Program-made: the position numbers and the translations under genes
Notes under the pieces: model-generated
The model's database searches: none
What the model was told of the DNA's origin: nothing
Seen by the model: only the letters and a program-made list of their open reading frames with translations
Shown here: piece after piece, positions 5,716 to 29,412 of the stretch
How positions within the stretch are numbered: the stretch's first letter is position 1
Layout: each line of letters opens with the position of its first letter
Origin: Candidatus Pacearchaeota archaeon
GTDB lineage: Archaea; Nanobdellota; Nanobdellia; Pacearchaeales; JAHJTO01
Direction of reading: 5' to 3'
NCBI GenBank assembly: GCA_038849525.1
Contig: JAWCMS010000001.1
Coordinates: 142,584 to 206,583, forward strand
DNA: 64,000 nt

Positions 5716-6081
5716 TTATCTTTGATAGGTCAATTTATCATGTCGTTGCTCTTTTTTTATAAATTTTACAACAGCTGTATAGATTTTTTCGCAAACATCT
5801 GAGACTGCATTGTAAAGATTCCACTTCGTAACACTTGCTGTGAACCTTGTATTTTTATCTATAAAAACAACACCATTGATTTCATGCTTAAAACTTTTGC
5901 CTTTTTGATGTTGTTGTAAGGTTAATTTCAATTCTTCAAAGGAACATACTTCTGAAAGCTTTTTTATGTATGTCATAACTATTTTTTGAATTTTTTCTAG
6001 TTCTACAGGTTCAAGAACTTCAAAGCCTATTAAAGCAACATTTCCTTTAATCTTGATTTCTTTCTGCATAGAGAATAGCAA
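5716..6081 (-). CDS. hypothetical protein
   Basis: 121-aa ORF co-oriented with the r-protein cluster. No recognisable motif. Confidence 0.4.
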   Translation of the reverse strand: MLFSMQKEIKIKGNVALIGFEVLEPVELEKIQKIVMTYIKKLSEVCSFEELKLTLQQHQKGKSFKHEINGVVFIDKNTRFTASVTKWNLYNAVSDVCEKIYTAVVKFIKKEQRHDKLTYQR

Positions 6082-6119
6082 ACCAAAAGCTTTTAAAAAG
6101 TTTTTTATTAGATAAATAG

Positions 6120-6845
6120 ATGAGTATATTAAAAAATCTGCTAAAAGGATTTATTAAAATCTTTTTGGTTCTTACAATAATACTTTTCATTTTGGCATCG
6201 ACAGGAGCTCATTTTACAGAAAAGGAAAATTTAAAGTATTTAATTCAAGAAATAATGGTTGAACAAATCGATAAAAACTATCTTAAAACAATAACCGATG
6301 AATTAAATAATTTATGTTATCAACATGAAAATGAGGTAATTAATAGATACGTTTATGAAATTAATACAACAATAAATATAGACTGCACTAAAATTAGTGA
6401 GGAATACGCAAAAAAGATATTCAAAGATTATGTAGTTGATAAAGAAATTGAAAATCTATATGCTCAAAAATGTACTGGATTTAAGTGTTTTGCAAATTTT
6501 TCAGCTGCTGCAAGCCAATCAGCGCATAGTTTTCTTAGAAAATTAGAAGTTGTTTTTGCAATTTTAGCATTAATTTTTGTAGTTTTGTTATTTTTATTGA
6601 CAAAAAAGGTTTCTAATAAAATGTTTGCAATTGGAATTCCTTTATTTATCTGTGGGGTTCCTTATTTCTTTATTGAAACTATAAAGAAAAAAATTTTTTT
6701 AACTATCTCTAATGCTGTTATAATAAAAATAATTATAGATGCAATTTTTGATTATGCTAGCAATTTATTTTTGGTGATATTAATAATAAGCATTATTCTC
6801 ATTGCTATTGGATTTATTATAAAAATAATTTTTAAAAAAAGCTAA
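6120..6845 (+). CDS. hypothetical membrane protein
   Basis: 241 aa with N-terminal and C-terminal hydrophobic segments. Confidence 0.45.
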   Translation: MSILKNLLKGFIKIFLVLTIILFILASTGAHFTEKENLKYLIQEIMVEQIDKNYLKTITDELNNLCYQHENEVINRYVYEINTTINIDCTKISEEYAKKIFKDYVVDKEIENLYAQKCTGFKCFANFSAAASQSAHSFLRKLEVVFAILALIFVVLLFLLTKKVSNKMFAIGIPLFICGVPYFFIETIKKKIFLTISNAVIIKIIIDAIFDYASNLFLVILIISIILIAIGFIIKIIFKKS

Positions 6846-7648
6846 AGAGAATCAAAAGGAGATTTAATTTTCTTTAACTCATCTGTTGAAACATGTGTAT
6901 ATATTTGGGTTGTATTAAGATTAGAATGACCAAGTAGTTCTTGGATGTAACGAATATCTGTTCCAGCTTCAAGAAGATGTGTAGCAAAGCTGTGTCTTAA
7001 AGTGTGAGGTGTAACTTTTTTTTGTATATTTGCTTTTTTTGTTGCTAATTTTACTATCTTTTGAATATTTCGCGTTGTTAAAGGTTTGTCTTTTGAAAAT
7101 AAGTATTGATAGTTTGGATGTTTATCTATGAATGCTTTTAGTTCTGGAATTATTTTCTCTGGTATAATAAAAATCCTATCCTTATTACCTTTTCCAGATT
7201 TTATTATTCCTGTTCGGTTTTCTAAATTCAAATCTAAAATTTTTAAATTTACCAATTCTGAAACTCTTAGACCAGTAGCATAAATAAAAGAAATTATTAA
7301 CTTCGACTTATTTGTATCTGCACTTTCTATTATTCTTTTAACTTCTTCTTTAGTTAATACCAAAGGTAGTTTTTTTTCCTTTTTTATTGGATGTATGTTA
7401 GCAAAAATTTCCTTTCCTAAAATTTTTTCATAATAAAATTTTAATGAAGCTAATGCAAGGGTGACAGTTGCTGTTGATTTTTTATCTAAAGATGCTATAA
7501 ACTGTTTTATATCATCTAAATTAACTAAATCTGCAGATTTTTTTATAAATTCAAGAAATTTTTTGTTGAAAAAAAGATAATTTTTTATTGTTTTTTCTGA
7601 TTTTCTTTGTAAACGCAATTCTGTTTCTAGTTTTTTTAGATCATCCAT
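6842..7648 (-). CDS. xerA: Tyrosine recombinase XerA/XerC-like
   Basis: C-terminal catalytic motif HTLRHSFATHLLEAGTDIRYIQELLGHSNLNTTQIYTHV (R, H-x-x-R, Y). Size of 268 aa is typical of XerA. Confidence 0.85.
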   Translation of the reverse strand: MDDLKKLETELRLQRKSEKTIKNYLFFNKKFLEFIKKSADLVNLDDIKQFIASLDKKSTATVTLALASLKFYYEKILGKEIFANIHPIKKEKKLPLVLTKEEVKRIIESADTNKSKLIISFIYATGLRVSELVNLKILDLNLENRTGIIKSGKGNKDRIFIIPEKIIPELKAFIDKHPNYQYLFSKDKPLTTRNIQKIVKLATKKANIQKKVTPHTLRHSFATHLLEAGTDIRYIQELLGHSNLNTTQIYTHVSTDELKKIKSPFDSL

Positions 7649-15706: not shown

Positions 15707-15963
15707 TTTTTATTAAGTTTTTTCAAGTTTTTATAGTTTTCTTATATAGGCGGAAAGTTTTCAGCATTGCTTAAAACTTTTGATTTTTTTGTTCTTTATA
15801 TCGCTTGTATTTTTTCCAAAGATGTTTTTCTCCAATATAGATACATCATGCTTCAATACCTGTAATAAGTAAAGAGCTGAGAAAATATGCTCCTATCTTT
15901 CTAAGTTTTCAGATTCAAAATTTGCTTGCATACGATGATAATAACTATAAAAAAGTTTAAATA

Positions 15964-16620
15964 TTGAACAGGTGTTTAAATTTTATGATTTTTAATTTCT
16001 GGCCTTTTAAAAAAAGTAATGAGCATGAAACCTTAAAAAATGAGATTAAACAGGCTTTTTCTGCTGTTAAACAAGATATAAATAAAGCAGCAGAGTGGAT
16101 TTCTCACTTACATACTAAAGATAAGCATCATGAAACTAAGTTTGAAGTTATAAATTCACGTTTATCGATGATAGAAAAAGATTTGGAAGAGATAAAAAAT
16201 TTTATTTCTTTCTTTTCTACAAGGACTAATAGAGTATTGTTTAAACAGCTGTCTAAACAAGGACAAACACCTGTTTATAAACAAACAACTGTTGGTGGTG
16301 TTCAAACAGCTGTTCAAACAGCTGTTCAAACAGGTTTTTTAGGTAATTTAAGTGCAAATGAAAGATTAATTGTTTGGACCTTGTTAAATACAGATATGAA
16401 ATTGAGCTGTGAAGATATAGCAGCAATATTAAATAAAGAGAGATCTACTATTAGAGGTCAAATAAATGCAATAAAACAAAAAAGTGAGAATCTTATTAGC
16501 GAAATTTCTGAAAACAATGGTAAAAAAAGATTTTTTATTGATGAAAAAGTGAAAGAAATGTTATTATCAAAAATATCTGAATCTAGGCGCCAGCTAAAGC
16601 TAAAGGCTAAGGAAAAATAA
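15964..16620 (+). CDS. coiled-coil protein with C-terminal HTH (sigma-70 region 4 / LuxR-like). Paralog of 16889..17653.
   Basis: N-terminal heptad-rich region, in-frame (VQTA)n repeat, then LSANERLIVWTLLNTDMKLSCEDIAAILNKERSTIRGQINAIKQK. Confidence 0.5.
   Translation: MNRCLNFMIFNFWPFKKSNEHETLKNEIKQAFSAVKQDINKAAEWISHLHTKDKHHETKFEVINSRLSMIEKDLEEIKNFISFFSTRTNRVLFKQLSKQGQTPVYKQTTVGGVQTAVQTAVQTGFLGNLSANERLIVWTLLNTDMKLSCEDIAAILNKERSTIRGQINAIKQKSENLISEISENNGKKRFFIDEKVKEMLLSKISESRRQLKLKAKEK
16300..16333 (+). repeat. In-frame tandem 12-nt repeat (GTTCAAACAGCT, about 2.8 copies) inside CDS 15964..16620
   Basis: gttcaaacagct gttcaaacagct gttcaaacag, encoding (VQTA)n. Confidence 0.9.
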
Positions 16621-16840
16621 AAAAGTGAGGATTATTTTTTAATTAAAACGAACTTTATAGTTATAATTTAGTATATTAAACGAATCTTTTACTAATAAAA
16701 ATTAAAAAAGTGAGAGTTATAGAGATCTAAAAATTTTTAAAAAATTAAGAAAAATAAATAAAAATTAAATAAAAAAAGAAATTTTTAATAAAAAGTGAGG
16801 ATTAATTAAAAATATTCGGTTAAACGTAAAAAGTGAAAGC
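16621..16840. repeat. Reiterated AAAAAGTGAGGATTA motif, 4 copies (two exact, two degenerate) between the convergent paralogs
   Basis: Copies at 16621-16635, 16705-16720, 16791-16806 and 16828-16840. Spacing is irregular (about 85, 86 and 37 nt). Each copy is followed by A/T-rich tracts. Confidence 0.7.
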
Positions 16841-16888
16841 AAAAACATTTAATTAATTTAAAATTTTTATTAATTATAGCTTATTTCT

Positions 16889-17653
16889 TTAATTTTTTTT
16901 AGAATTGAACTCATTAAGACTGCTATTCGGCATCTGATTTCTTATTCTCAATAAAATGTCTAAAGTCGCTAAGTTCCTAATTTCATCAGGTATTTTTAGT
17001 ATTGTGACCTTATTATTAAGTCTTTCCTTAACTATTGGGATGCCTTTTTTTATTATTTTTTGTACATAATCACGTATACTTGACTCAGAAAGGCCTGTTT
17101 TTTCTGAAAGAGTCTTGTAAGTTATTGATTTTTGACTTTTATCGACGGTAAATAAGATTTGAAAAATATAAAATTCTTGTTTTGTTAATGACCTAAAACG
17201 CATTTTTAAGTCATTTTTTAAATTGTTTACTAGTTCTGTGATGCTTTCTGTTTGTTGTTTAGATGTGTTGAAATATGTATTTGTTTGTTGGATTTCTTTG
17301 TCTATCTGTTGGATATCTGTTGGATTTTGTGTTGGAATATATGTTGGAATTTTATTTTGCAAAGAGAATTTATCGTCGATAATTGTTGAAAATATGTTGG
17401 TTGTTGGTCTGTCTGTCTGTCTGTCTGTTGGAACCCCTTTATTTCCTATGGAAATTTGCTGTATAAAGTTCGTTTTAATTTCTTGTAATTCTTTTTTAAG
17501 TGTAATTATTTGTTCTGTTAGAGAATCTATATCTCTTTTTACTTTTTCAAAGGCTTCTTTTAGTTTTTCTTCATTCATCTTATTTTTAAATCTATGTTTA
17601 ATTAAATAATTTATTATAATAGAATGATTAGGTATAGGTATGATCTCTTTCAT
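16889..17653 (-). CDS. coiled-coil protein with C-terminal HTH. Paralog of 15964..16620. Contains a (GTCT)5 tetranucleotide repeat.
   Basis: N-terminus EKLKEAFEKVKRDIDSLTEQI is similar to the paralog. C-terminus has LTKQEFYIFQILF...YKTLSEKTGLSESSIRDYVQK (HTH). The repeat encodes TDRQTDRP. Confidence 0.5.
   Translation of the reverse strand: MKEIIPIPNHSIIINYLIKHRFKNKMNEEKLKEAFEKVKRDIDSLTEQIITLKKELQEIKTNFIQQISIGNKGVPTDRQTDRPTTNIFSTIIDDKFSLQNKIPTYIPTQNPTDIQQIDKEIQQTNTYFNTSKQQTESITELVNNLKNDLKMRFRSLTKQEFYIFQILFTVDKSQKSITYKTLSEKTGLSESSIRDYVQKIIKKGIPIVKERLNNKVTILKIPDEIRNLATLDILLRIRNQMPNSSLNEFNSKKN
17407..17426. repeat. (GTCT)5 simple sequence repeat within CDS 16889..17653
   Basis: ggtctgtctgtctgtctgtctgtt. 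Flanked by further TGTTGGA-type reiterations at 17280-17350. Confidence 0.9.
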
Positions 17654-17936
17654 TATAATAAATCTTTTGCTTTTCTATAGTGTTATATGCTTCAAATGCT
17701 TTTGACGAAAGTCTCCATCTCAACCTTCTTGAATAAAGAACTCCATTAGGATTTTTATTTATACTTACAACAATCTTTTGACTTTCTAGTTCTTTTAAGA
17801 CTTTTTTTGTAAACTCTTCATCCCGTATTATTTCAGATGCTATTTCTGAAGTAAACATAGGTTTAGGAGAGTTTCTATATAAAACAGCAATAATTACCTC
17901 TTTTATCTTATCTATTTTATCTTTTGAAAGTCTCAT
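17628..17936 (-). CDS. small winged-HTH DNA-binding protein
   Basis: 102 aa with IIAVLYRNSPKPMFTSEIASEI...VLKELESQKIV. Overlaps the 3' end of the preceding gene by 26 bp. Confidence 0.45.
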   Translation of the reverse strand: MRLSKDKIDKIKEVIIAVLYRNSPKPMFTSEIASEIIRDEEFTKKVLKELESQKIVVSINKNPNGVLYSRRLRWRLSSKAFEAYNTIEKQKIYYNERDHTYT

Positions 17937-18040
17937 AAAAATAATTATGTAAACAGGGTTTATTAAATATTCGGTATACGGAAAAAATAATTTTATTTAT
18001 TTTTACTATCAAAAGTTAAGTTTTTAAATAGTTTAATAAA

Positions 18041-20650
18041 TTGATAAAAACCATGGAAATAGCTGTAAGAAAAAGCGAACAAGAATTATTAAATATTCTT
18101 GATCCTTTAGTAAGAGAGTGGTTTTTTTCTCACTTTAAAGAATTTTCAGAACCGCAACTCTATGGAGTAGTGCCTATCTATGAAAGGAAAAATATACTTA
18201 TCTCTGCTCCTACTGGAGGAACTAAAACTTTGACTGCTTTTCTTTCTATAATAAATTATCTTGTTATTTTGGCAAAAAAAAATGAACTTGAAGATAAGGT
18301 TTATTGTATTTATACAAGCCCGCTTAAAGCTTTGGCAAATGACATTCTTGTTAATCTAATTAATCCTCTAAAAGAAATAAATGAAATAGCCAAGAAAAAA
18401 GGGATTATGCTGCAAGAAATAAGAGTTTCTGTAAGAACAGGAGACACAACAATAGATGAAAGACAGAAGATGCTTAAGAAGGTACCACATATTCTTATAA
18501 CAACCCCCGAAACATTAGCAATAATATTAAATTCAATAAAACTTATTGAAAAGCTATCTAATGTTGAGTTTCTTATTGTTGATGAAATTCATGCTCTAGC
18601 AAGTAACAAAAGGGGTGTTCATTTATCACTAAGTATTGAAAGACTTAATGAGTTATCAATGATAAAACCGGTAAGAATAGGATTATCCGCAACTATAGCT
18701 CCTTTGAAAGATATTGCTAGTTATCTTGTAGGGTATGAAAATGGAAAACAAAGAGAGTGTTTAATTGCAGATATACATTCAACAAAAAAAATTGATTTGA
18801 AAGTTATAACCCCTGTTGAAGACTTGATAGATTCGCCAACTATAGAACAACAAAAAGGATTATATGAGCTACTTGATAAATTAATACAAGAACACAAAAC
18901 AACATTGATATTTACAAATACAAGAAGTGCTACTGAAAGGGTTATTAATCATTTAAAAGAGAGGTTTCCATCTAAATATATTGATAATATAGGGGCGCAT
19001 CACTCTTCTTTAAGTAAAGAATTTAGGTTCAAAATTGAAGAAAAGCTTAGAAAAGGAGAATTAAAGGTTGTTGTTACTTCAACAAGTTTAGAGCTAGGAA
19101 TAGACATAGGGTATATTGATTTAGTCATAATGCTTGGAAGCCCTAAAAGTGTAGCAAGAGCATTACAGAGAACGGGAAGAGCAGGACATAGATTACATGA
19201 AGTAAGTAAAGGAAGATTTGTTGTTCTTGATAGAGATGATTTGGTTGAATGTGCAGTAATGTTAAAAGAAGCAAAAGAAAATAAGATTGATAGTGTTCAA
19301 ATTCCAAAAAATTGCCTTGATGTTTTAAGTCAGCAGATTTATGGAATGGCAATATCAAAGGTTTGGCATGTAGGTGATATGTTAAGATTAATAAGACAAA
19401 GTTATTGCTATCATGATCTCAAAACAGAAGACTTCTATTCTGTTATTTCTTATCTCAGTGGAGAGTACGCTTTAAATGCAAGAAATGTATATGCAAAAAT
19501 ATGGTTCGACAGCAAGACCGGTATGATAGGTAAAAAAGGAAAACTTGCAAGAGCAATTTATATGACAAATGTAGGAACTATACCTGAAGAAAGTTTTGTA
19601 AATGTTATAATACAATTGCCTGTTGAAAAAAGAGATATGAAAATAGGGGTAATAGATGAGGGTTTTTTGGAAAGACTGAAAAGAGGAGATGTTTTTGTTC
19701 TTGGAGGGCATAAATACGAGTTTCTTTATGCTAAGGGTATGAACGCTTATGTAAATGCATCTGTATCAAAATCACCAAACATCCCTTCATGGTTCTCTGA
19801 GATGCTACCTTTATCCTTTGATCTTGCAATGGCTGAGCAAAGGTTTAGAAAACTGGTTGCAGAAAAATTTGAAATAAAAAAACCAGCAAATGAAATAATA
19901 AAATTTATTTCTAACTATCTTTATGTTGATGAAAAAACTGCCGAAATAATTTATTCTTATTTTTATGAGCAGTTTAGATATAGCAAGATACCACATCTTG
20001 AAAGATTATTAATAGAGTATTGGAATGATGGGAGGAAAAATTATGCTATATTCCACAGTTTATTTGGGAGGAGAATCAATGATGCTTTATCTAGAGCTTT
20101 GGCTTATGTTGTTGGAAGATTTGGGGGGAGAGATATAGAAATTGGAATAAATGATAATGGCTTTTATCTTGCTTCTCAGACAGAGATGCAGGTTGAAAGA
20201 GCAATCCATGAAATTAATAGTAAAAATCTGCGAGATATATTAGAAGAAGCTATTTCAAAGACAGAAGTCTTTAAGAGAAGATTTAGACATTGTGCCACAA
20301 GAGCACTAATGTTGCTAAGGAATTATAAAGGACATAGAAAAAGTGTTGGAAAACAGCAGATGTCTAGTCACTTTTTACTTACGGCAAGTCAAAAAGCATC
20401 GGCAGATTTTCCTATTTTAAAGGAGACTAAAAGAGAAATAATGAATGATTTAATGGATTTGGAAAATGCAAAATTAGTATTGGATTTGATAAAGGAAGGA
20501 AAGATAAAGATTGAAATATTAAACAAAGAATTGCCTTCTCCTTTTTCTCTTGGGTTAATAATACAAGGACATACAGATTTGATGAGAATAGAAGATAAAA
20601 TAGAATTTTTAAAAAGAATGCATAAAGAAATAATAAAAAAGATAGAGTAA
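18041..20650 (+). CDS. lhr: Lhr-core type superfamily 2 (SF2) ATP-dependent helicase
   Basis: 869 aa. Motif I APTGGTKTL (non-canonical G-T-K), II DEIH, III SAT, VI QRTGRAGHR. The long C-terminal extension is typical of Lhr-core. Followed by MPE. Confidence 0.75.
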   Translation: MIKTMEIAVRKSEQELLNILDPLVREWFFSHFKEFSEPQLYGVVPIYERKNILISAPTGGTKTLTAFLSIINYLVILAKKNELEDKVYCIYTSPLKALANDILVNLINPLKEINEIAKKKGIMLQEIRVSVRTGDTTIDERQKMLKKVPHILITTPETLAIILNSIKLIEKLSNVEFLIVDEIHALASNKRGVHLSLSIERLNELSMIKPVRIGLSATIAPLKDIASYLVGYENGKQRECLIADIHSTKKIDLKVITPVEDLIDSPTIEQQKGLYELLDKLIQEHKTTLIFTNTRSATERVINHLKERFPSKYIDNIGAHHSSLSKEFRFKIEEKLRKGELKVVVTSTSLELGIDIGYIDLVIMLGSPKSVARALQRTGRAGHRLHEVSKGRFVVLDRDDLVECAVMLKEAKENKIDSVQIPKNCLDVLSQQIYGMAISKVWHVGDMLRLIRQSYCYHDLKTEDFYSVISYLSGEYALNARNVYAKIWFDSKTGMIGKKGKLARAIYMTNVGTIPEESFVNVIIQLPVEKRDMKIGVIDEGFLERLKRGDVFVLGGHKYEFLYAKGMNAYVNASVSKSPNIPSWFSEMLPLSFDLAMAEQRFRKLVAEKFEIKKPANEIIKFISNYLYVDEKTAEIIYSYFYEQFRYSKIPHLERLLIEYWNDGRKNYAIFHSLFGRRINDALSRALAYVVGRFGGRDIEIGINDNGFYLASQTEMQVERAIHEINSKNLRDILEEAISKTEVFKRRFRHCATRALMLLRNYKGHRKSVGKQQMSSHFLLTASQKASADFPILKETKREIMNDLMDLENAKLVLDLIKEGKIKIEILNKELPSPFSLGLIIQGHTDLMRIEDKIEFLKRMHKEIIKKIE

Positions 20651-21987: not shown

Positions 21988-22428
21988 TTAACCTGTATAA
22001 GTTGAGGATTTCGATGTTTTTTCTTCTTCTGGCCTTATTATTGGGAGTCTTAGATGAGGGGGTAAATTGAAGTCTTCTTCTAGTTCAAGAGCTTTAATAT
22101 TGCATTTATGAAAAATAGTATTAAATACACGAAGTTTTATATCAGATTCTAAAATCTTTTTCTTTTTCCATTCTTCAAGAATGCCTTTTGCTTCTTTTGG
22201 TTCGGCCATAACAAGAATAAATCCTCTAAAAAGCAATTCTGCAAGTTCTGGTTCGTAATTTATAGAATATTCAAAATCAAATTTCAGAACATCTTTATTC
22301 TCAACAAGCTTTATTTTTTCTTCTTTGACATCTTTTATATCAATCTTAGAAGAAACCTGAAATTTTCCTTTCATATCGTTTTTTCTATCAATTAAAATCT
22401 TTGTTAATGTAAATCCTACTATTTGCAT
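21988..22428 (-). CDS. hypothetical protein
   Basis: 146-aa ORF. Confidence 0.4.
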   Translation of the reverse strand: MQIVGFTLTKILIDRKNDMKGKFQVSSKIDIKDVKEEKIKLVENKDVLKFDFEYSINYEPELAELLFRGFILVMAEPKEAKGILEEWKKKKILESDIKLRVFNTIFHKCNIKALELEEDFNLPPHLRLPIIRPEEEKTSKSSTYTG

Positions 22429-22493
22429 AAATATAATGATAAAAGAACATTTTTAAATGTTTTTGAAGTTTATAATATAATAAAAATTTAGAA

Positions 22494-22754
22494 TTATGCT
22501 AAATCTTCTTCACTTACAACTACAAAATCACCTATTGCTATAATTGCACTATAAGGAATAAGTAAATCATTATCTTTTGTTTTTTCTAACCCTAAAGAGA
22601 GAGCATAAGCTGTAGGTTGTGTAAGCATTAGATGTATTAATTCACCAGTTTTTATTTCAAAAGTAATATCTTTTACTACACCAAGCCTCCTACCTTCTTT
22701 TGTTACTACGCTTTTAGTAAGAATTTCTTTAAGAGGCTTTTTTTCTAATGCCAT
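22494..22754 (-). CDS. PRC-barrel domain protein
   Basis: 86 aa with VVTKEGRRLGVVKDITFEIKTGELIHLML, a PRC-barrel pattern. A paralog lies at 44483..44758. Confidence 0.55.
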   Translation of the reverse strand: MALEKKPLKEILTKSVVTKEGRRLGVVKDITFEIKTGELIHLMLTQPTAYALSLGLEKTKDNDLLIPYSAIIAIGDFVVVSEEDLA

Positions 22755-22895
22755 ATTCTTTTATAAGTTAATTAATTTATAAATGTTTCTATTTTATAAT
22801 GACTTTTTTATAATAAAGTAGTAAGAGCTTTAAAATTTAAATTTATGTTTAATTTGATATCTAAAATAATTTTAAAAATTCGTTTAATTTTTTAA

Positions 22896-22926
22896 GTGTC
22901 CCCTTCATTGCTTATGGAAATATAAA
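22896..22926. repeat. ORB-like box 1 (G-string plus ATGGAAATATA)
   Basis: gtgtccccttcattgcttATGGAAATATAaa. Its reverse complement, TTCCATAAGCAATGAAGGGGA, resembles the archaeal ORB dyad TTCCAGTGGAAAC...GGGG. Confidence 0.45.
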
Positions 22927-23080
22927 AAAATTTAAAAAGATTGTCAAAAATTTTATTTTCTTTTTTTATTTAATTTATAAATTTTTATATATTTTTATAT
23001 TATATATTATAAATATATTTTTCTAATATATTTTTTAAAAATAAATTATCTTATAAAATAAATAAATATTTTTAAATTTT

Positions 23081-23104
23081 GTTTCCAATGGAAATATAGG
23101 TCTG
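23081..23104. repeat. mini-ORB-like box 2 (TTCCAATGGAAA dyad)
   Basis: gTTTCCAATGGAAATATAgg contains the palindromic core TTCCA-ATGGAA, like the mini-ORB TTCCAGTGGAAA. Confidence 0.5.
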
Positions 23105-23232
23105 TATTATTATTTTTCATTTGAAATATATTTATAAAAGGAGCTTTTTTTAAAAAATAACAAAAAATGTAAAAGGAGGCAAAAGAGGCTAAGGATTTAA
23201 TAAATTTTATAATTTATTTTTAAGATAGCCTT

Positions 23233-24447
23233 TTGTTTTTCATGTCAATAAAATTAGACAAAATTTTTGATTCTTTTACTAAGGAAAGTATATTTAAAAA
23301 TAAATTTATTCTTCAATCAAATTATGTACCAGAAGCAATACAACATAGAGATAAACAAATAAAACAAGTTGCATCAATACTTGCACCTTGTCTTAGATTA
23401 GAAAGGCCTAGTAATCTTTTTATTTATGGTAAAACAGGTACTGGCAAAACAATTTCAATAACTTTTGTTAAAAATGAACTGTTGAAAAGAGCACAAGAGC
23501 AAGATATTCCGTTAACAATAGAGTATATAAATTGTAAACTAAAAAAAGTTGCGGATACAGAATATAGAATTTTAGCAGAACTTATTAAAAAACTCGGTGG
23601 AAATGTTCCATCTACAGGACTCCCTACAGATCAAGTATACCAAAAATTTATTGAAATTGTGGATTCAAAAAAACAATTATTAATTATTATACTTGATGAA
23701 ATAGATCAAGCAGTTAAGAAAATAGATGATAATTTTCTTTATAATCTTACAAGACTAAATTCAGAGCTTACTAAAGCCCAAATGTCAATTATAGGGATAA
23801 GTAATGATGTGAGATTTCTTGATTATATTGATCCAAGAATAAAAAGTAGCTTATCAGAGGAAGAACTTGTTTTTCCACCATATAATGCTTTACAATTAAA
23901 AGATATTTTAAAAGAAAGAGCAATAAAAGCATTTAAAGAAAATGTAATTGGAGAAGGAGTTATAGAAAAATGTGCTGCATATGCTGCACGTGAACATGGT
24001 GATGCAAGAAGGGCATTAGATTTATTAAGAATAGCTGGAGAGCTAGCAGAAAGAGATGGAAAAAATATTGTTTTATTAGAATATATAGACAAGGCAAATG
24101 AAAAAATAGAACGTGATAAAATTTTTGATGTTGTTGCAACACAACCAAAACAATTTCAGCTTGTTCTTATGGCTATTATAATTTCAGAAGAAAAAAAAAT
24201 GGAACAAATTTTTACTGGTGACATCTATAATATTTATCAAGCTTTATGTAATAAAACCTCTACTGAACCACTAACACAAAGAAGAATAGGGGATATTATT
24301 GCAGAATTTGATATGCTTGGGATAATAAACGCAAGAGTAGTAAGCAAAGGCAGATATGGAAGGACAAGGGAAATTAAACTTGCAATTCCATCTACCATTC
24401 TTGACAAAATAAAAGAAATGATAAAAGATTCTTTAGGTTTAAAATGA
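23233..24447 (+). CDS. cdc6: Orc1/Cdc6 replication initiator (AAA+ with C-terminal winged helix)
   Basis: Walker A GKTGTGKT, Walker B LIIILDEID, sensor regions and C-terminal wH. Confidence 0.9.
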   Translation: MFFMSIKLDKIFDSFTKESIFKNKFILQSNYVPEAIQHRDKQIKQVASILAPCLRLERPSNLFIYGKTGTGKTISITFVKNELLKRAQEQDIPLTIEYINCKLKKVADTEYRILAELIKKLGGNVPSTGLPTDQVYQKFIEIVDSKKQLLIIILDEIDQAVKKIDDNFLYNLTRLNSELTKAQMSIIGISNDVRFLDYIDPRIKSSLSEEELVFPPYNALQLKDILKERAIKAFKENVIGEGVIEKCAAYAAREHGDARRALDLLRIAGELAERDGKNIVLLEYIDKANEKIERDKIFDVVATQPKQFQLVLMAIIISEEKKMEQIFTGDIYNIYQALCNKTSTEPLTQRRIGDIIAEFDMLGIINARVVSKGRYGRTREIKLAIPSTILDKIKEMIKDSLGLK

Positions 24448-25961
24448 GTATTATTAAAGCCTTTTTACAAGAAGGAATCCTTATAGAACCATCACTTTTA
24501 GAATTTTTTAAAACAAATCAAATAAGTTATAATCTCATTGATGTTATAAAGAGTCTTAATATAAGTTTTTTATCAAAAGATGTATTATTTCAAAATAATG
24601 AAAAAATAAAATTCTTTTTAGAGAGTATTAAACATGGAAAAAATGATGAAGAAAAAGCGTTGATAGAAAAAACAATTGAGTGTTTGTCTATTTTCAAAAA
24701 AGAAATAAAAAATGAAACAAAAGAAAATAAAATTAAATTTAAAATTCTTGAATCATGGAAAATTCCAAGTAGAAAAATAAATGTTGATGATTTTGTAAAA
24801 TATTTCAAAAATAGACTTGTTATATTAAAAACTGCTCTACAAGAAAGAGCTGAACTTGTAAATTTAACTGCAATAAATAAAATATCAAATCAAAAACAAA
24901 ATAATATAAGTATTATTGGAATCGTATATGAAAAGATAATTACAAAAAATAAAAATATAATTTTAGAGATAGAAGATTTTACTGGAAGAATTTCTGTTCT
25001 TGTAAATTTTAATAAGGAAGATGTTTATAAAAAAGCTGAAAAGGTACTGCTTGATGATGTTATTGGTATAAAAGGAAGTGGAAATTCCGAACTTTTATTT
25101 GCAAACGATATCTTTTTTCCAGATGCATTTATACCAAAGAAAGAGGGTGATAAAGAAGATTTTGCCGCTTTTATTTCAGATATTCATATAGGTTCAAGTA
25201 TGTTTTTGGAGGATGAATTTTTAAGATTTATTAATTGGTTAAACTTAGAAAAAGGGAGCGATGAACAAAAAGAGATAGCTAAAAAGGTAAAATATCTTTT
25301 TATAGTAGGAGACACAGTAGATGGTGTAGGAGTTTATCCAGGTCAAGAAGATTTATTAAAAATTAAAGATGTAAAAGAACAATATATGAAATTAGCAGAG
25401 TTTTTAAATAATATAAGAAAAGATATTACAATTTTTATGATTCCTGGACAACATGATGCTGTAAGAATTGCAGAGCCACAACCTCCAATAGATGAAGATT
25501 ACGCTCCAGAACTTTATAAAATAAATAATCTTGTTTTATTAAGCAACCCTTCTATGGTAGAAGTTTGTGGAAGAAAAATTTTACTTTATCACGGTGCAAG
25601 TTTTCATAATATTATAGATGGCATTGAAGAATTAAGACTTGCAAATGCACATAACAATCCTTCTAAAGTGATTAAAACAATTTTAAACAAAAGACATTTA
25701 GCACCAACACACGCATCAACAGTATATATTCCTACTAAAGATACAGACCCGTTAGCAATAAGAGAAGTACCTGATGTTATTGCAACAGGAGAGCTACATA
25801 AAGTAGATATTGGTTTTTATAACAATATTAGAATAATAGCTTCTTCATGTTGGCAATCTCAAACACCCTTTGAAGAAAAAGTTGGCAATTTATCTGAACC
25901 ATGTAAGGTTCCTATTTTGAATTTAAAAAATAATTCAGTAAAAATAATGGATTTTTCATAA
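24444..25961 (+). CDS. polB: DNA polymerase II (PolD) small subunit DP1 (3'-5' exonuclease, calcineurin-like)
   Basis: Phosphoesterase motifs FISDIHIGS, FIVGDTVDG, IPGQHDA and LYHGASF. 4-bp overlap with cdc6. Confidence 0.85.
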   Translation: MSIIKAFLQEGILIEPSLLEFFKTNQISYNLIDVIKSLNISFLSKDVLFQNNEKIKFFLESIKHGKNDEEKALIEKTIECLSIFKKEIKNETKENKIKFKILESWKIPSRKINVDDFVKYFKNRLVILKTALQERAELVNLTAINKISNQKQNNISIIGIVYEKIITKNKNIILEIEDFTGRISVLVNFNKEDVYKKAEKVLLDDVIGIKGSGNSELLFANDIFFPDAFIPKKEGDKEDFAAFISDIHIGSSMFLEDEFLRFINWLNLEKGSDEQKEIAKKVKYLFIVGDTVDGVGVYPGQEDLLKIKDVKEQYMKLAEFLNNIRKDITIFMIPGQHDAVRIAEPQPPIDEDYAPELYKINNLVLLSNPSMVEVCGRKILLYHGASFHNIIDGIEELRLANAHNNPSKVIKTILNKRHLAPTHASTVYIPTKDTDPLAIREVPDVIATGELHKVDIGFYNNIRIIASSCWQSQTPFEEKVGNLSEPCKVPILNLKNNSVKIMDFS

Positions 25962-25968
25962 TAAAAAC

Positions 25969-28900
25969 ATGCAACAATATTTTAAAGAAATAGAGAATAA
26001 AGTAAAGGTTGCTTATTCGATAGCTGGAGAAGCAAGAGCGAAAGGCTTAGATCCAGTGTCAATAGTAGAAATACCTCTGGCTACAAGTTTGGCTGAAAGA
26101 GTTACAGGATTAATTTCAACAAAATATCCTCAAGTTAGAAATTCTGGAATAGAAAAAAGGATTAAAGAACTAGAAAAACAATATGGTTTTCTTGACTCTG
26201 CTATTTGTTTACAAATTGCAGAAGAAGTTGCTAAAGAACGTTTTTGCAAATTCCAAAATATGGAAGAAGCATTAGATGCAGGAATAAGAATTGCATTTGC
26301 TTATATAACTCTTGGCGTTGTATCATCACCATTAGAAGGATTTACTCATTTTAAAATAAAGAAAACAATAGATGGAAAAGATTATATGGCTGTTTATTAT
26401 TCTGGGCCAATAAGGTCTGCTGGTTCAACTACAGCTGCTTTTTCTCTTTTAATTATAGATCATCTAAGAGAAGTTTTTGGATTCGCAAAATATGATCCTA
26501 CTGAACAAGAAATCAAAAGAATGATTACTGAGATATATGATTATCATGAAAGAGTTGCTAATCTACAATATTTACCTACTGAACAAGAAATATATTTTAT
26601 GTTTAAGAATTTACCTATACAAGTTACAGGGGATCCATCAGAAGAAAGAGAAGTTTCAAATTACAAAGATCTGGCCAGAATTGAAACAAATAAAATTAGG
26701 AATGGACCATGTCTTGTTTTAGGGGAAGGGCTGGCACAAAAATCTTTCAAAATTTTAAAGAGATTGAATCATCTAAGAGAAAAAGGTTTTAAACTAACGG
26801 ATTGGGATTGGTTAAAAGATTTTACTGAATTACAGAAAAAATTAATTGCCGAAAAAAAAGAGAAAGCAACGGGAACTTATATACAGGATATCGTTGCTGG
26901 AAGACCTGTTTTTTCTCACCCCTCTAGATCTGGAGGATTTAGGCTTAGGTACGGAAGGGCAAGAACATCAGGATATAGTGCTATTGCTATTTCTCCTTTA
27001 ACTATGGTTCTATTGAATAATTTTATTGCTATTGGAACACAAATAAAACTAGAAAAACCAACAAAAGCTGCAGCAGTAACTTCTTGTGATACAATAGAAG
27101 GTCCTATAGTAAAATTAAAAGATGGTTCGCTTGTTAAGATTAAAGATTTAAAAGAAGCAAATGAAATAAAACCTTATGTAGAAGAAATAGTTTATTTAGG
27201 AGATATATTAATTTCTTATGGGGATTTTTTGAATAGAAATCATATTCTTCTTCCTGCAGGATATAATGAAGAGTGGTGGTATGCAGAATTATTAGAAAAA
27301 GATAAAATAGAAGCAGAAAAAATAAACCCTTTAGATATAAGTCTTGATAAAGCAATAGAATTAAGTGAAAAATATGAAATTCCTTTACATCCAAAATACA
27401 TTTTTTACTGGTCACAAATAAATTACGAATTATTTTTTGCAATGTTAAAATGGCTTGAAAAAGCAAAAATAATAAACGGAAAATTAATTCTTGATTATAC
27501 TGAAAAAGAAAAAAAAGCAAAACGCGCTCTTGAATTGCTTGGAGTAGAGCATAAAAAAGAAGGAGACAAATTTGTTGTCGATGAAATAATAACAAAAGCA
27601 TTTTTTTTGAATTTGGGTAAACGTATAGAAGAAATCAACGAACTAATAAGACAACCAGAACAAAGAGAAGGAGTTCTTGAATTTATAAATTCTTTTTCTA
27701 AATATAAAATCAAAGATAAAGCAGGGACTTTTATAGGTGCGAGGATGGGTCGACCTGAAAAAGCAAAGTTGAGAAAACTTGTTGGTTCTCCACATGTTTT
27801 GTTTCCTGTAGGCGAAGCAGGAGGAAGAATGAGGAGTGTACAAGAAGCTATGAAATCTTATGTCGAAGCTGATTTTCCTATTTATTTCTGTGATAATTGT
27901 AAACAAGAAACCATTTATTTTATTTGTGAAAAATGTAATAATAAAACAAGGAAACTATGTTACTGTCCATTATGTGAAAGAATTGTAGGTGAAAATTGCC
28001 CTCAACATGGGGGGATACAAGGAGGAAAAGTTAAAACATTTATGCAAAAAAGAATTGATCTTAGTTATTATGTAAATAGTGCTTTAAATTATTTGAATAT
28101 CCAGAAAACTGATATACCAGAATTAATAAAAGGTGTTAGGGGAACAAGTTCTGAGGAACATATACCAGAACATATAGCAAAAGGAATTCTAAGAGCTCAG
28201 TTCTCACTTAATGTAAATAAAGATGGAACAATAAGATATGACGCAAGTGAAGTTCCGATTACACATTTTAAACCAAAAGAAATAGATACTGAAATAAAAA
28301 AATTAAAAGAGCTAGGATATACAAAAGATATTTTTGGAAAAGAACTAGTTGATAAAGAACAAATTTTATGTTTGAAGCCACAAGATATTATTCTCCCTTC
28401 ATGTCCTGAAACTCTTGATGAAAAAGCAGATGATGTTTTTGTAAATATTGCAAAATTTATTGATAATTTGCTTGTGAGATTTTACAAACAAAAACCATTT
28501 TATAATGTTAAATCAAGAGATGATTTAGTAGGACATTTAGTTGTTGGAATTGCTCCACATAACTGTGCGGGGGTAGTTGGAAGAATAATAGGGTTTAGTA
28601 AGACGCAAACTTTTTTGGCAAGCCCATATATGCATGCTGCAATGCGTAGAGATTGCGATGGCGATGAAGCTGCGATAATGTTACTTTTAGATTTACTGCT
28701 TAATTTTTCAAAAAAATTTTTACCTGCACATAGAGGAGGGACACAAGATGCACCTTTAGTTTTAAATGCAAGAATAAGAGCTTCTGAAGTTGATGATATG
28801 ATTCTTGATATGGATATTACAAAAAATTTACCATTAGAACTTTACAAAGCAGCTGAAGAGTTTAAATCTCCAAGTAGTATTAAGATTGAAAACATTGGTA

Positions 28901-29412
28901 CTAGGCTTGGAGAAGAGGAAAAAGATGCAAATGTTTTCGAGGATTTATGGTTTACTCATGATACTTTAGATATCAATAATGGAACTATTTGTTCTTCTTA
29001 TAAAACACTTGAAACAATGCAAGACAAAGTAAAAGCGCAGATGGAACTTGCAGAAAAAATTCGGGCTGTAGATACAACAGATGTTGCAAGGCTTGTTATC
29101 GAAAGACATTTTATTCGTGATATTAGGGGAAATTTGAGAAAATTTTCAGGACAGCAATTTCGCTGTGTTGATTGTAATACGAAATACAGAAGGCCACCTT
29201 TGACTGGCAAATGTTTAAATTGTAATGGAAGAATAATATTCACAATTGCTGAAGGTTCTATTGTTAAGTATCTTGAGCCTGCTCTTCAACTAGCTGAAAA
29301 ATATAATATCTCACCTTATCTTAAACAAAGTTTAGAATTAACAAAGTCTTACATCGAGAGTATTTTCGGTAAAGAATTAGAAAAACAGCAAGACTTAGAA
29401 AGGTGGTTTTAA
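25969..29412 (+). CDS. polC: DNA polymerase II (PolD) large catalytic subunit DP2
   Basis: 1147 aa. Zn fingers CDNCKQET...CEKCNNKT...CPLCE and C-terminal CVDCNTKY...CLNCNG. No intein-sized insertion. Confidence 0.85.
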   Translation: MQQYFKEIENKVKVAYSIAGEARAKGLDPVSIVEIPLATSLAERVTGLISTKYPQVRNSGIEKRIKELEKQYGFLDSAICLQIAEEVAKERFCKFQNMEEALDAGIRIAFAYITLGVVSSPLEGFTHFKIKKTIDGKDYMAVYYSGPIRSAGSTTAAFSLLIIDHLREVFGFAKYDPTEQEIKRMITEIYDYHERVANLQYLPTEQEIYFMFKNLPIQVTGDPSEEREVSNYKDLARIETNKIRNGPCLVLGEGLAQKSFKILKRLNHLREKGFKLTDWDWLKDFTELQKKLIAEKKEKATGTYIQDIVAGRPVFSHPSRSGGFRLRYGRARTSGYSAIAISPLTMVLLNNFIAIGTQIKLEKPTKAAAVTSCDTIEGPIVKLKDGSLVKIKDLKEANEIKPYVEEIVYLGDILISYGDFLNRNHILLPAGYNEEWWYAELLEKDKIEAEKINPLDISLDKAIELSEKYEIPLHPKYIFYWSQINYELFFAMLKWLEKAKIINGKLILDYTEKEKKAKRALELLGVEHKKEGDKFVVDEIITKAFFLNLGKRIEEINELIRQPEQREGVLEFINSFSKYKIKDKAGTFIGARMGRPEKAKLRKLVGSPHVLFPVGEAGGRMRSVQEAMKSYVEADFPIYFCDNCKQETIYFICEKCNNKTRKLCYCPLCERIVGENCPQHGGIQGGKVKTFMQKRIDLSYYVNSALNYLNIQKTDIPELIKGVRGTSSEEHIPEHIAKGILRAQFSLNVNKDGTIRYDASEVPITHFKPKEIDTEIKKLKELGYTKDIFGKELVDKEQILCLKPQDIILPSCPETLDEKADDVFVNIAKFIDNLLVRFYKQKPFYNVKSRDDLVGHLVVGIAPHNCAGVVGRIIGFSKTQTFLASPYMHAAMRRDCDGDEAAIMLLLDLLLNFSKKFLPAHRGGTQDAPLVLNARIRASEVDDMILDMDITKNLPLELYKAAEEFKSPSSIKIENIGTRLGEEEKDANVFEDLWFTHDTLDINNGTICSSYKTLETMQDKVKAQMELAEKIRAVDTTDVARLVIERHFIRDIRGNLRKFSGQQFRCVDCNTKYRRPPLTGKCLNCNGRIIFTIAEGSIVKYLEPALQLAEKYNISPYLKQSLELTKSYIESIFGKELEKQQDLERWF

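Follow-up and report, generated by a model that had tools for sequence, protein, structure and literature searches.

Repeats in the linker codons of two winged-helix genes near a predicted replication origin of a Pacearchaeota archaeon: DNA elements rather than a phase-variable switch?

A perfect tetranucleotide repeat inside the coding region of an archaeal gene raises the question of whether this gene is switched on and off by slippage. The repeat considered here, (GTCT)5.5, lies in a 64-kb stretch of contig JAWCMS010000001.1 (positions 142,584 to 206,583; assembly GCA_038849525.1) from Candidatus Pacearchaeota archaeon. This whole stretch, hereafter the window, has a GC content of 28.7%. 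Within it, the interval 15964-17936 had been singled out in a preliminary description as a convergent pair of regulator genes with repeats in their coding regions, and the tetranucleotide tract had been proposed to be a phase-variable contingency locus. Two genes had been named; the interval contains three of them, designated geneA, geneB and geneC (Table 1). We propose, with moderate confidence, that the repeats are locally perfect parts of DNA elements carried by the linker codons of geneA and geneB, two paralogous winged-helix genes near a predicted replication origin, and that they are not on/off switches.

An origin-recognition-box-like element in geneB

Comparison of geneB orthologs (65-83 sequences, with 30-70% amino acid identity) points to a site of the linker where nucleotides are fixed along with amino acids. 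This site encodes the motif S-x-G-N-x-G-V. In the 65 non-redundant orthologs, its codons are TCC (64/64), GGA (65/65), AAT (61/65), GGG (65/65) and GTT (64/65). In the same genes, the invariant residues of the helix-turn-helix (HTH) domain use all their codons: six codons are found for Leu, and the two-fold degenerate residues are distributed 32:32 for Phe, 28:28 for Lys and 24:15 for Asn. A codon-alignment scan of 83 orthologs revealed no other nucleotide-conserved site in geneB and none in geneC. The invariant core can be written T-TCC-AyA-GGA-AAT-nnn-GGG-GT or, in its 22-nucleotide (nt) form, TTTCCAyAGGAAATnnnGGGGT. It comprises a dyad, which is ATTTCC-ATA-GGAAAT in the window (17441-17455), and a G-string, GGGGT. 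With the exception of two central spacer bases, per-base frequencies in the dyad are 0.93-0.98. The G-string is invariant and is located 3 nt past the dyad, thereby giving a polarity to the element. The box is recovered at 12 bits or more in 82 of the 83 orthologs, and there is no mismatch to TTCCANNGGAAAT in the window and in three other loci (L111, L112 and L113).

In its sequence, the geneB core is built like an archaeal origin recognition box (ORB), that is, a TTCCAnnGGAAA dyad associated with a G-string. It agrees at 18 of 22 positions, in the same register, with TCTCCACAGGAAACGGAGGGGT, which we take to be the ORB4 probe of Aeropyrum pernix, although the paper that prints this sequence gives it no label. 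The agreement with ORB1 of P. furiosus, TTCCAGTGGAAATGAA, extends to 14 of 16 positions (PMC1904270).

A position weight matrix trained on the geneB sites alone was then used outside the gene. In five of six genomes, its best match outside geneB falls in the intergenic region upstream of the initiator gene orc1/cdc6. This region represents 0.75-3.6% of each sequence, and the joint chance of five such placements in six is about 3e-9 according to our own arithmetic. In the window, the match reaches 18.9 bits, compared with a maximum of 10.1 bits in 20 shuffles. The region corresponds to a predicted oriC, located directly upstream of orc1/cdc6 and of the PolD genes DP1 and DP2. In canonical archaeal origins of the oriC1 type, inverted ORBs flank an AT-rich unwinding element beside orc1/cdc6 (PMC4010727; PMC12141716). 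Exactly this arrangement is found at positions 22760-23232 of the window, next to cdc6-DP1-DP2. The geneB element shares the dyad and G-string anatomy of these origins, but the box is not beside an AT-rich unwinding element. In eight orthologs (L001, L002, L038, L040, L041, L042, L044 and L072), a second ORB is present on the opposite strand, 78 nt downstream. This second box is translated as NTP(L/P)FPVD, and a CA-rich tract lies between the two G-strings. No ORB-like site was found at or above 8-12 bits in geneA, in geneC or in the A-B intergenic regions.

One may ask whether the box acts in the messenger rather than in the DNA. In such a model, an mRNA structure or binding site would control translation or stability of the geneA and geneB mRNAs. 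This could involve the hairpin AUUUCC-nnn-GGAAAU, for which the dyad can provide a 6-bp stem, the CA-rich unstructured tract, or pairing between 3′ untranslated regions (3′UTRs) and coding regions of the convergent transcripts. It fits this idea that a 19-nt exact inverted copy joins the intergenic region to geneB and that the strand-specific motifs of the intergenic region have the potential to fold as hairpins. However, members of the 22-mer class are found on both strands and in the non-coding region upstream of cdc6, which speaks for a DNA element and against an RNA element. The stems are invariant, hence they offer no covariation to draw on. Moreover, no Rfam family was matched: searches with the whole window at the gathering threshold, and with positions 15900-18100 at E values up to 1, returned only 5S rRNA, tRNA-Ser and chance-level microRNA matches. 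We regard an RNA-level mechanism as improbable.

If the geneB box is viewed as a DNA element, the closest known case is that of Thermococcales, from which intragenic ORBs are already known. In Pyrococcus, Cdc6/Orc1 binds an ORB cluster inside the coding region of dp1, as established by chromatin immunoprecipitation and electrophoretic mobility shift assays (Matsunaga et al., 2007; PMC1904270). There as here, oriC and cdc6 are a few kb away from boxes that lie within a protein-coding gene. Conservation of the ORB/mini-ORB cluster of Pyrococcus and Thermococcus extends across an order, and the core of these boxes, TTCCAnnGGAAATGAA, is nearly identical to the geneB box. By comparison, the geneB case differs in host gene and clade. 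The host is a coiled-coil winged-helix gene situated on the other side of oriC. Most geneB orthologs hold one box and no cluster, and a tetranucleotide run adjoins it. Finally, the geneB box, a putative binding site, is conserved at single-codon resolution across Pacearchaeota/Woesearchaeota.

Codon use and reading frame of the repeats

The repeats listed in the preliminary description were all recovered with Tandem Repeats Finder, two of them with slightly revised limits. In geneA, the repeat given as 2.8 units at 16300-16333 corresponds to 2.9 units of TGTTCAAACAGC at 16299-16333 (100% matches, score 70). It is in frame and encodes VQTAVQTAVQT. In geneB, (GTCT)5 at 17407-17426 extends to 5.5 perfect units at 17407-17428 (100% matches). 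This tract is also in frame; its coding strand is (ACAG)n, translated as TDRQTDR. The TGTTGGA-type reiterations reported to flank it form an array with periods of 11, 12 and 24 nt at 17286-17353, and 6 of the 13 minus-strand TCCAACA words of the window are inside geneB. As a more general observation, simple repeats are strongly depleted in the window, which is 71% AT: there are two homopolymers of at least nine nucleotides, no dinucleotide run of at least five units and one trinucleotide run of four units.

The tetranucleotide tract begins 4 nt after the G-string of the box (GGGGT-TCCA-ACAGACAG...). At the level of the family, it corresponds to an (ACAR)n run in which the number of perfect units varies from 0 to 8.5. 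In certain lineages the run is (ACAA)n, translated as TNKQ, and in others it is mixed. Its codon usage is strongly skewed. In 65 geneB genes, GAC:GAT is 92:2 in the tract versus 265:442 in the rest of the gene (p = 5e-33), AAC:AAT is 82:8 versus 306:576 (p = 2e-26) and ACA:ACT is 155:3 versus 496:194. Because of this skew, selection on the peptide alone does not explain the tract.

These data bear directly on a protein-level explanation, where the repeats would encode a conserved short linear motif or a low-complexity linker, and where the DNA repeats would be no more than its back-translation, with some remodelling by slippage from time to time. Conservation of the peptides SxGNxGVPTDRQT and KQTAVxGVQTxVQTxVQ is indeed observed, and the linker regions are predicted to be disordered. 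Conserved low-complexity regions are also described as common in prokaryotes (PMC6821194). However, such an explanation does not account for two Gly fixed on different codons, for the fixation on TCC of Ser, a residue with six codons, although the clade is AT-rich, or for the GAC:GAT ratio of the tract in genes whose HTH domain shows saturation at synonymous sites. It also leaves aside the match to the oriC boxes and the observation, made by eye, that the reading frame of the word TCCAACAGA differs between orthologs. We regard this explanation as quite improbable.

Nucleotide-level constraint is found in the linker of geneA as well. There, CAA:CAG is 162:19 versus 48:113 in the rest of the gene (p = 2e-31) and ACA:ACT is 136:2 versus 61:69. 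The variable fourth codon of the (VQTx) units ends with T in 108 of 145 cases, compared with 1601 of 4145 codons for these amino acids in the rest of the gene. The nucleotide consensus of this linker spans about 85 nt. In addition, the palindrome TGTTTAAACA, with one mismatch allowed, occurs within 300 nt upstream of geneA at 20 of 52 loci (1.8 expected); the upstream copy of the window is near 15971. At oriC, a search for geneA-type words found none. The TGTTYAAACA array of geneA would be an operator array, to which one of the three winged-helix proteins might bind.

Could the tetranucleotide tract nevertheless act as a contingency locus, switching geneB ON and OFF by frameshift upstream of the HTH? 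Several features are in line with this idea. The tract meets, at threshold only, the in-silico cut-off of five tetranucleotide units used by PhasomeIt (PMC6321876), and its longest orthologous versions have 8.5 perfect units. Like the tracts of bacterial phase-variable genes, the tract keeps its position throughout a deep clade. In simulation, a change by one unit cuts the geneB protein to 90 or 70 amino acids, before the HTH, as the preliminary description had anticipated; the products of one- or two-unit changes have 66-94 amino acids and all lack the HTH. When the simulated product with one unit less was compared with the protein collection, no match was obtained; as a single candidate passed the index, this result carries no weight as to natural OFF alleles.

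Bacterial contingency genes are commonly in the OFF state in a substantial share of genomes. In the geneB family, the N-terminal motif and the HTH are in a single open reading frame (ORF) at 73 of the 74 loci having the linker motif, and in 64 of the 65 non-redundant genes. The sole exception is L075 (Ga0208245_1036090). Over about 1138 nt, this locus differs from L064 and L065, which come from different samples, by one mismatch and by one 20-nt (5 x 4) deletion in the geneB tract, in the 4-nt register, which breaks the frame. Hence, unless this is an assembly error, out-of-frame slippage does occur naturally, and the deletion could be a rare deleterious allele. It can be remarked that, in L075, an HTH-only product might still be made from an in-frame ATG that immediately precedes the C-terminal domain.

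Tract length is also stable. Ten clusters of sequences with at least 90% identity show no repeat-sized length differences: eight are identical, one differs by 1 amino acid and one by 16 amino acids, these differences being due to start sites. Orthologs with 59-69% identity have equal lengths through the tract, apart from one 12-nt insertion. This constancy indicates that purity of the tract changes by substitution and not by slippage. Within one of the clusters with at least 90% identity, tract alleles differ by three clustered substitutions, which may be counted in favor of a contingency locus. As concerns geneA, the TGTTCAAACAGC repeat cannot shift the frame because its unit is 12 nt long, and the (VQTx)3 motif is family-wide with a nearly fixed copy number.

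A regex scan of the window for perfect tetranucleotide runs of at least three units gave (GTCT)5 and two AAAT x3, and no more, so that (GTCT)5 is the sole non-trivial run in 64 kb. Absence of similar tracts elsewhere was one of the observations that the preliminary description itself would have held against phase variation. The comparison of relatives, which it had suggested as a check, points in the same direction, frame and length being stable with one 20-nt deletion allele. The tract is short, and geneB is a conserved single-copy gene of a core neighbourhood, neither a surface gene nor a restriction-modification gene. Known loci of this type in bacteria include the tetranucleotide tracts of mod and lic in Haemophilus influenzae (De Bolle et al., 2000, as cited in PMC11868660 and PMC6321876). 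Like these simple-sequence-repeat loci, geneB has a non-triplet repeat inside its ORF, upstream of a functional domain, with a number of units at the in-silico cut-off and one natural frameshift allele. Unlike them, its tract is short, length-stable and almost always in frame, it is alone in the window, the gene product is a cytoplasmic regulator, and its switching would be hypothetical. Altogether, an evolved ON/OFF switch at (GTCT)n is very improbable, although switching at a low frequency may occur. The case also invites caution: a perfect non-triplet repeat in a gene is not in itself evidence of a contingency locus, and ortholog comparison is able to separate the cases.

A possible role for Orc1/Cdc6

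In the explanation based on DNA elements, the repeats, the invariance at synonymous sites, the similarity to ORBs, the synteny with cdc6 and oriC and the frame statistics are observed, and we infer which protein would bind the elements and what the effect of binding would be. Orc1/Cdc6, encoded 5.8 kb away, would bind the intragenic box of geneB. The bound box could serve as an auxiliary origin site, as in dp1 of Thermococcales; it could also serve as a roadblock or as a regulator of geneB. As for geneA, its (VQTx)3 codons would spell phased TGTTYAAACA half-palindromes, the full palindrome being also found upstream of the gene. The encoded peptides would be partly by-products of the DNA elements, tolerated thanks to the disordered character of the linker. 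The tetranucleotide tract would be held in frame and at constant length, slippage being rare and probably selected against. One possibility is that constraint acts on the tract as a flank of the intragenic box. Another is that slippage turnover, under selection on length and frame, keeps it pure, which would fit the clustered allelic differences and the L075 deletion.

An analogy with bacterial origins may be envisaged, where DnaA-trios reportedly adjoin DnaA boxes (Richardson et al., 2016). In geneB too, a short periodic unit is found directly beside a putative initiator box, on the side where the AAA+ module is said to be. The analogy is limited in that the initiator and the domain of life are different, the period is 3 nt for DnaA-trios and 4 nt in geneB, the oriC boxes of the same genomes have no tract, and single-strand binding of the tract would be conjectural. 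A bolder version of the proposal may be imagined on this basis. The linker codons of both genes would primarily be DNA elements throughout Pacearchaeota/Woesearchaeota, peptide motifs being by-products. Initiator binding would couple expression or origin architecture to replication initiation, and the tract would be a periodic initiator-associated element, loosely resembling DnaA-trios, with slippage occasionally knocking out the gene. Taken as a whole, this version is rather unlikely.

Several observations weigh against the explanation based on DNA elements. GC skew shows no polarity switch at 22.9 kb, and its cumulative curve has its minimum near 5-6 kb. Of eight genomes examined, two (L111 and L117) have no cdc6 in the 10 kb upstream. 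Most orthologs have a single intragenic ORB, situated 1.5-6.5 kb from oriC. Where two boxes are present in geneB, their G-strings face inward, that is, opposite to the outward arrangement of oriC. No (ACAR)n run comes after the oriC boxes of these genomes; hence the tract is not a general feature of ORBs, and its nucleotide-level bias is not explained by resemblance of the box to an ORB. The hairpin that the dyad could form in the mRNA, considered above, belongs to the same side of the balance. Finally, the codons preferred in the geneA linker, CAA, ACA, GTT and AAA, are AT-favoured, and part of the bias could be compositional.

If the box is a real Orc1/Cdc6 site, it would offer a sequence-defined handle on the replication origins of DPANN archaea and on their accessory factors. 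The DPANN organisms concerned here are uncultivated, and no study of their origins was found in the literature searched. The locus would also be an unusually clean case in which a DNA element overlapping the gene dictates a protein motif, two Gly of the same seven-codon stretch being each fixed on a codon of its own. Moreover, the three uncharacterised winged-helix proteins and the repeat-bearing intergenic region would become candidate origin-associated or chromosome-maintenance factors.

Genes, neighbourhood and intergenic region

Table 1. Features of the geneA-geneB-geneC locus and of the predicted origin (window coordinates)
Feature	Position	Strand	Description
geneA	15985..16620	+	211 amino acids; coiled-coil helix, linker, winged helix; NCBI QW041_01060
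Nucleotide-conserved block	16238..16335	+	geneA linker; TGTTYAAACA words in 12-nt phase; includes TGTTCAAACAGC x2.9
Convergent A-B intergenic region	16621..16888	.	15% GC; direct AAAAGTGAGGATTA copies at 16621, 16706 and 16791, spacing about 85 nt; AAAAGTGAGAGTT repeats
geneB	16889..17578	-	229 amino acids as annotated; coiled-coil helix, linker, MarR/Lrs14-like winged helix; NCBI MEM2956151.1
TCCAACA-type reiterations	17286..17353	-	geneB linker; period 11-12 nt; encode xPTx units
(GTCT)5.5 tract	17407..17428	-	(ACAG)n on coding strand; part of family-wide (ACAR)n run
ORB-like element	17433..17455	-	Dyad ATTTCC-ATA-GGAAAT, AAA, G-string GGGGT; translated S-I-G-N-K-G-V
19-nt stretch AATTAAAACGAACTTTATA	17462..17480	-	geneB, encodes IKTNFI (codon ACG); exact inverted copy at 16641-16659 in A-B intergenic region
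geneC	17628..17936	-	102-amino-acid small protein, directly upstream of geneB; winged-helix similarity sub-threshold only
Predicted oriC	22760..23232	.	AT-rich, TA-rich tandem repeats; inverted boxes about 22898-22920 (-, TTTCCATAAGCAATGAAGGGGACAC) and about 23082-23104 (+, TTTCCAATGGAAATATAGGTCTGT)
orc1/cdc6 initiator gene	23233..24447	+	Pfam Cdc6_C 1.9e-26, Cdc6_lid 2.2e-24
PolD DP1	24444-25961		After cdc6; Pfam DNA_pol_E_B and PolC_DP2 matches for the DP1/DP2 pair
PolD DP2	25969-29412		After DP1

The architecture first described for the two convergent proteins, with an N-terminal helix, a middle linker and a C-terminal HTH, agrees with structure predictions. In the AlphaFold2 model of the geneA protein, a helix (10-77) is followed by a region of low confidence (78-120) and by a winged helix (124-184). 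The corresponding segments in the geneB protein are 3-37, 38-104 and 133-214, the winged-helix topology having pLDDT values above 90. Pfam HTH_11 matches geneB over threshold (29.5 bits) and geneA under threshold (18.8 bits). With Foldseek, geneB retrieves MarR-type chains and the Lrs14-like AbfR2 and ST1889 chains (E about 1e-3), and a geneA profile compared with the PDB retrieves the Lrs14-like chain 6cmv (E = 0.0026). Other PDB profile matches are restricted to generic coiled coils (GCN4 fusion) and weak Lrs14 or winged-helix hits, and matches of NCBIfam models to the three proteins are all far below cut-offs. Paralogy of geneA and geneB, also put forward initially, is supported but distant: the winged-helix domains align with 93% probability (hhalign, E = 2.8e-7), and with BLASTP the N-terminal AFxxVKxDI motif alone aligns (E = 0.005). 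As for the middle regions, which had been described as of low complexity, they are indeed predicted to be disordered linkers, but they are the most nucleotide-constrained parts of both genes.

The C-terminal domains of A and B are predicted to have a winged-helix fold resembling that of MarR and Lrs14-type regulators. A and B differ from these regulators by an additional N-terminal coiled-coil helix and a conserved linker of 40-70 residues, by weak scores against curated models and, in the searches made here, by confinement of the family to DPANN-type archaea. Kleisin/ScpA-like and CdvA-like readings of the helix-linker-winged-helix architecture were considered and dropped, as neither Pfam nor PDB searches supported them. 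A relationship of geneC with the ucm-binding protein of Sulfolobus (UBP) was rejected because this protein is described as a saddle-shaped strand-swapped dimer and not as a winged helix (PMC12141716). An antisense ORF at 17223-17609 (128 amino acids) was judged to be a by-product of the T-poor sense strand. Concerning gene limits, the NCBI start of geneA is the ATG at 15985 and not the TTG at 15964, and the geneB ORF extends to 17653. The geneA protein matches P0121 at 100%, and P0001 likewise matches at 100%; the genome is also assembled in the Logan run SRR27730043. Its N-terminal helix contains, at residues 38-50 (about 16096-16134 in the window), a conserved W-I-x-H-L-H-x(4,5)-H-H-E pattern where W38, H41 and H49 are invariant; this pattern might be a metal-binding site.

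Homologs of geneA (1672) and geneB exceed 1000 each. Organisms named in the sources are all Pacearchaeota or Nanoarchaeota, and titles of genome records also mention Woesearchaeota. For comparison of neighbourhoods, 109 loci (L001-L109) were fetched from genomes and metagenomes. The order C, B, convergent A is kept almost wherever the contig is long enough, often with an Lhr-type helicase gene upstream of the cluster. In six genomes, including the window and taking 10-kb flanks, the C-B-A cluster is 1.5-6.5 kb from orc1/cdc6, with DP1 and DP2 after cdc6. Three genomes have the order DP2-DP1-cdc6, intergenic region, PRC-barrel gene, gene of about 140 amino acids, C, B and convergent A. The window is the mirror image of this DP2-DP1-cdc6 ... 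C-B-A arrangement. The PRC-barrel gene and the gene of about 140 amino acids adjoin the intergenic region upstream of cdc6 in L112-L116; in the window, the corresponding neighbourhood is at 21988-22755, where a PRC-barrel ORF was identified by eye only (about 22480-22755). A XerA-like tyrosine recombinase gene is found 3-5 kb beyond geneA in L112-L115. Together, the PRC-barrel, 140-amino-acid and XerA-like genes form a conserved origin-proximal neighbourhood.

The A-B intergenic regions are themselves unusual. In orthologous loci, they are AT-rich and long, typically 250-550 nt, and contain 2-5 direct copies of rAAAAGTGAGAGTT, always in the geneA sense. The word AAAGTGAG is present in 50 of 57 of these regions, against 2.3 expected, also always in the geneA-sense orientation. 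The word AAACGAACTT is present in 21 of the 57. If the 3′UTR of geneB runs through the intergenic region, it could pair with its own coding region by means of the 19-nt inverted repeat. These intergenic repeats may be iterons or a structured 3′UTR or non-coding RNA.

From these regions, another explanation may be drawn, where the C-B-A locus would be a second origin or a centromere-like partition site, and where A, B, C and Orc1 would bind the repeats and boxes. It partly overlaps the explanation that we prefer, so that its probability is not to be read independently. A long AT-rich intergenic region with direct repeats at 50 of 57 loci, three clustered winged-helix genes, an ORB within 0.6 kb and a gene for a XerA-like integrase 3-5 kb away are all compatible with chromosome maintenance. 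Such a function is nonetheless improbable too, as ORB matches are absent from the intergenic regions, no partition ATPase was seen in the neighbourhood, and the ORB is oriented away from the intergenic region.

Other features of the locus can be mentioned. Other recurrent words of the A-B intergenic regions are TTAAAACGAACTTT, TAAGCCTTA and ACCGAATA, and in several of these regions the first two intergenic motifs can pair as a hairpin. In many orthologs (L049, L053, L061, L013, L058, L020 and others), a near-perfect palindrome, for example GGAGATAAGCCTTATCTCC or GAATTAAGCCTTAATTC, precedes the geneB ORB by about 20 nt; TAAGCCTTA is a word of this palindrome. In L117, a 634-amino-acid gene at 5725-7629 (minus strand), between the Lhr helicase gene and C-B-A, contains bacterial-type Sigma70_r2, r3 and r4 Pfam domains. 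Such a sigma-like gene is unexpected for an archaeon; the rest of the contig resembles the Pacearchaeota/Woesearchaeota loci examined.

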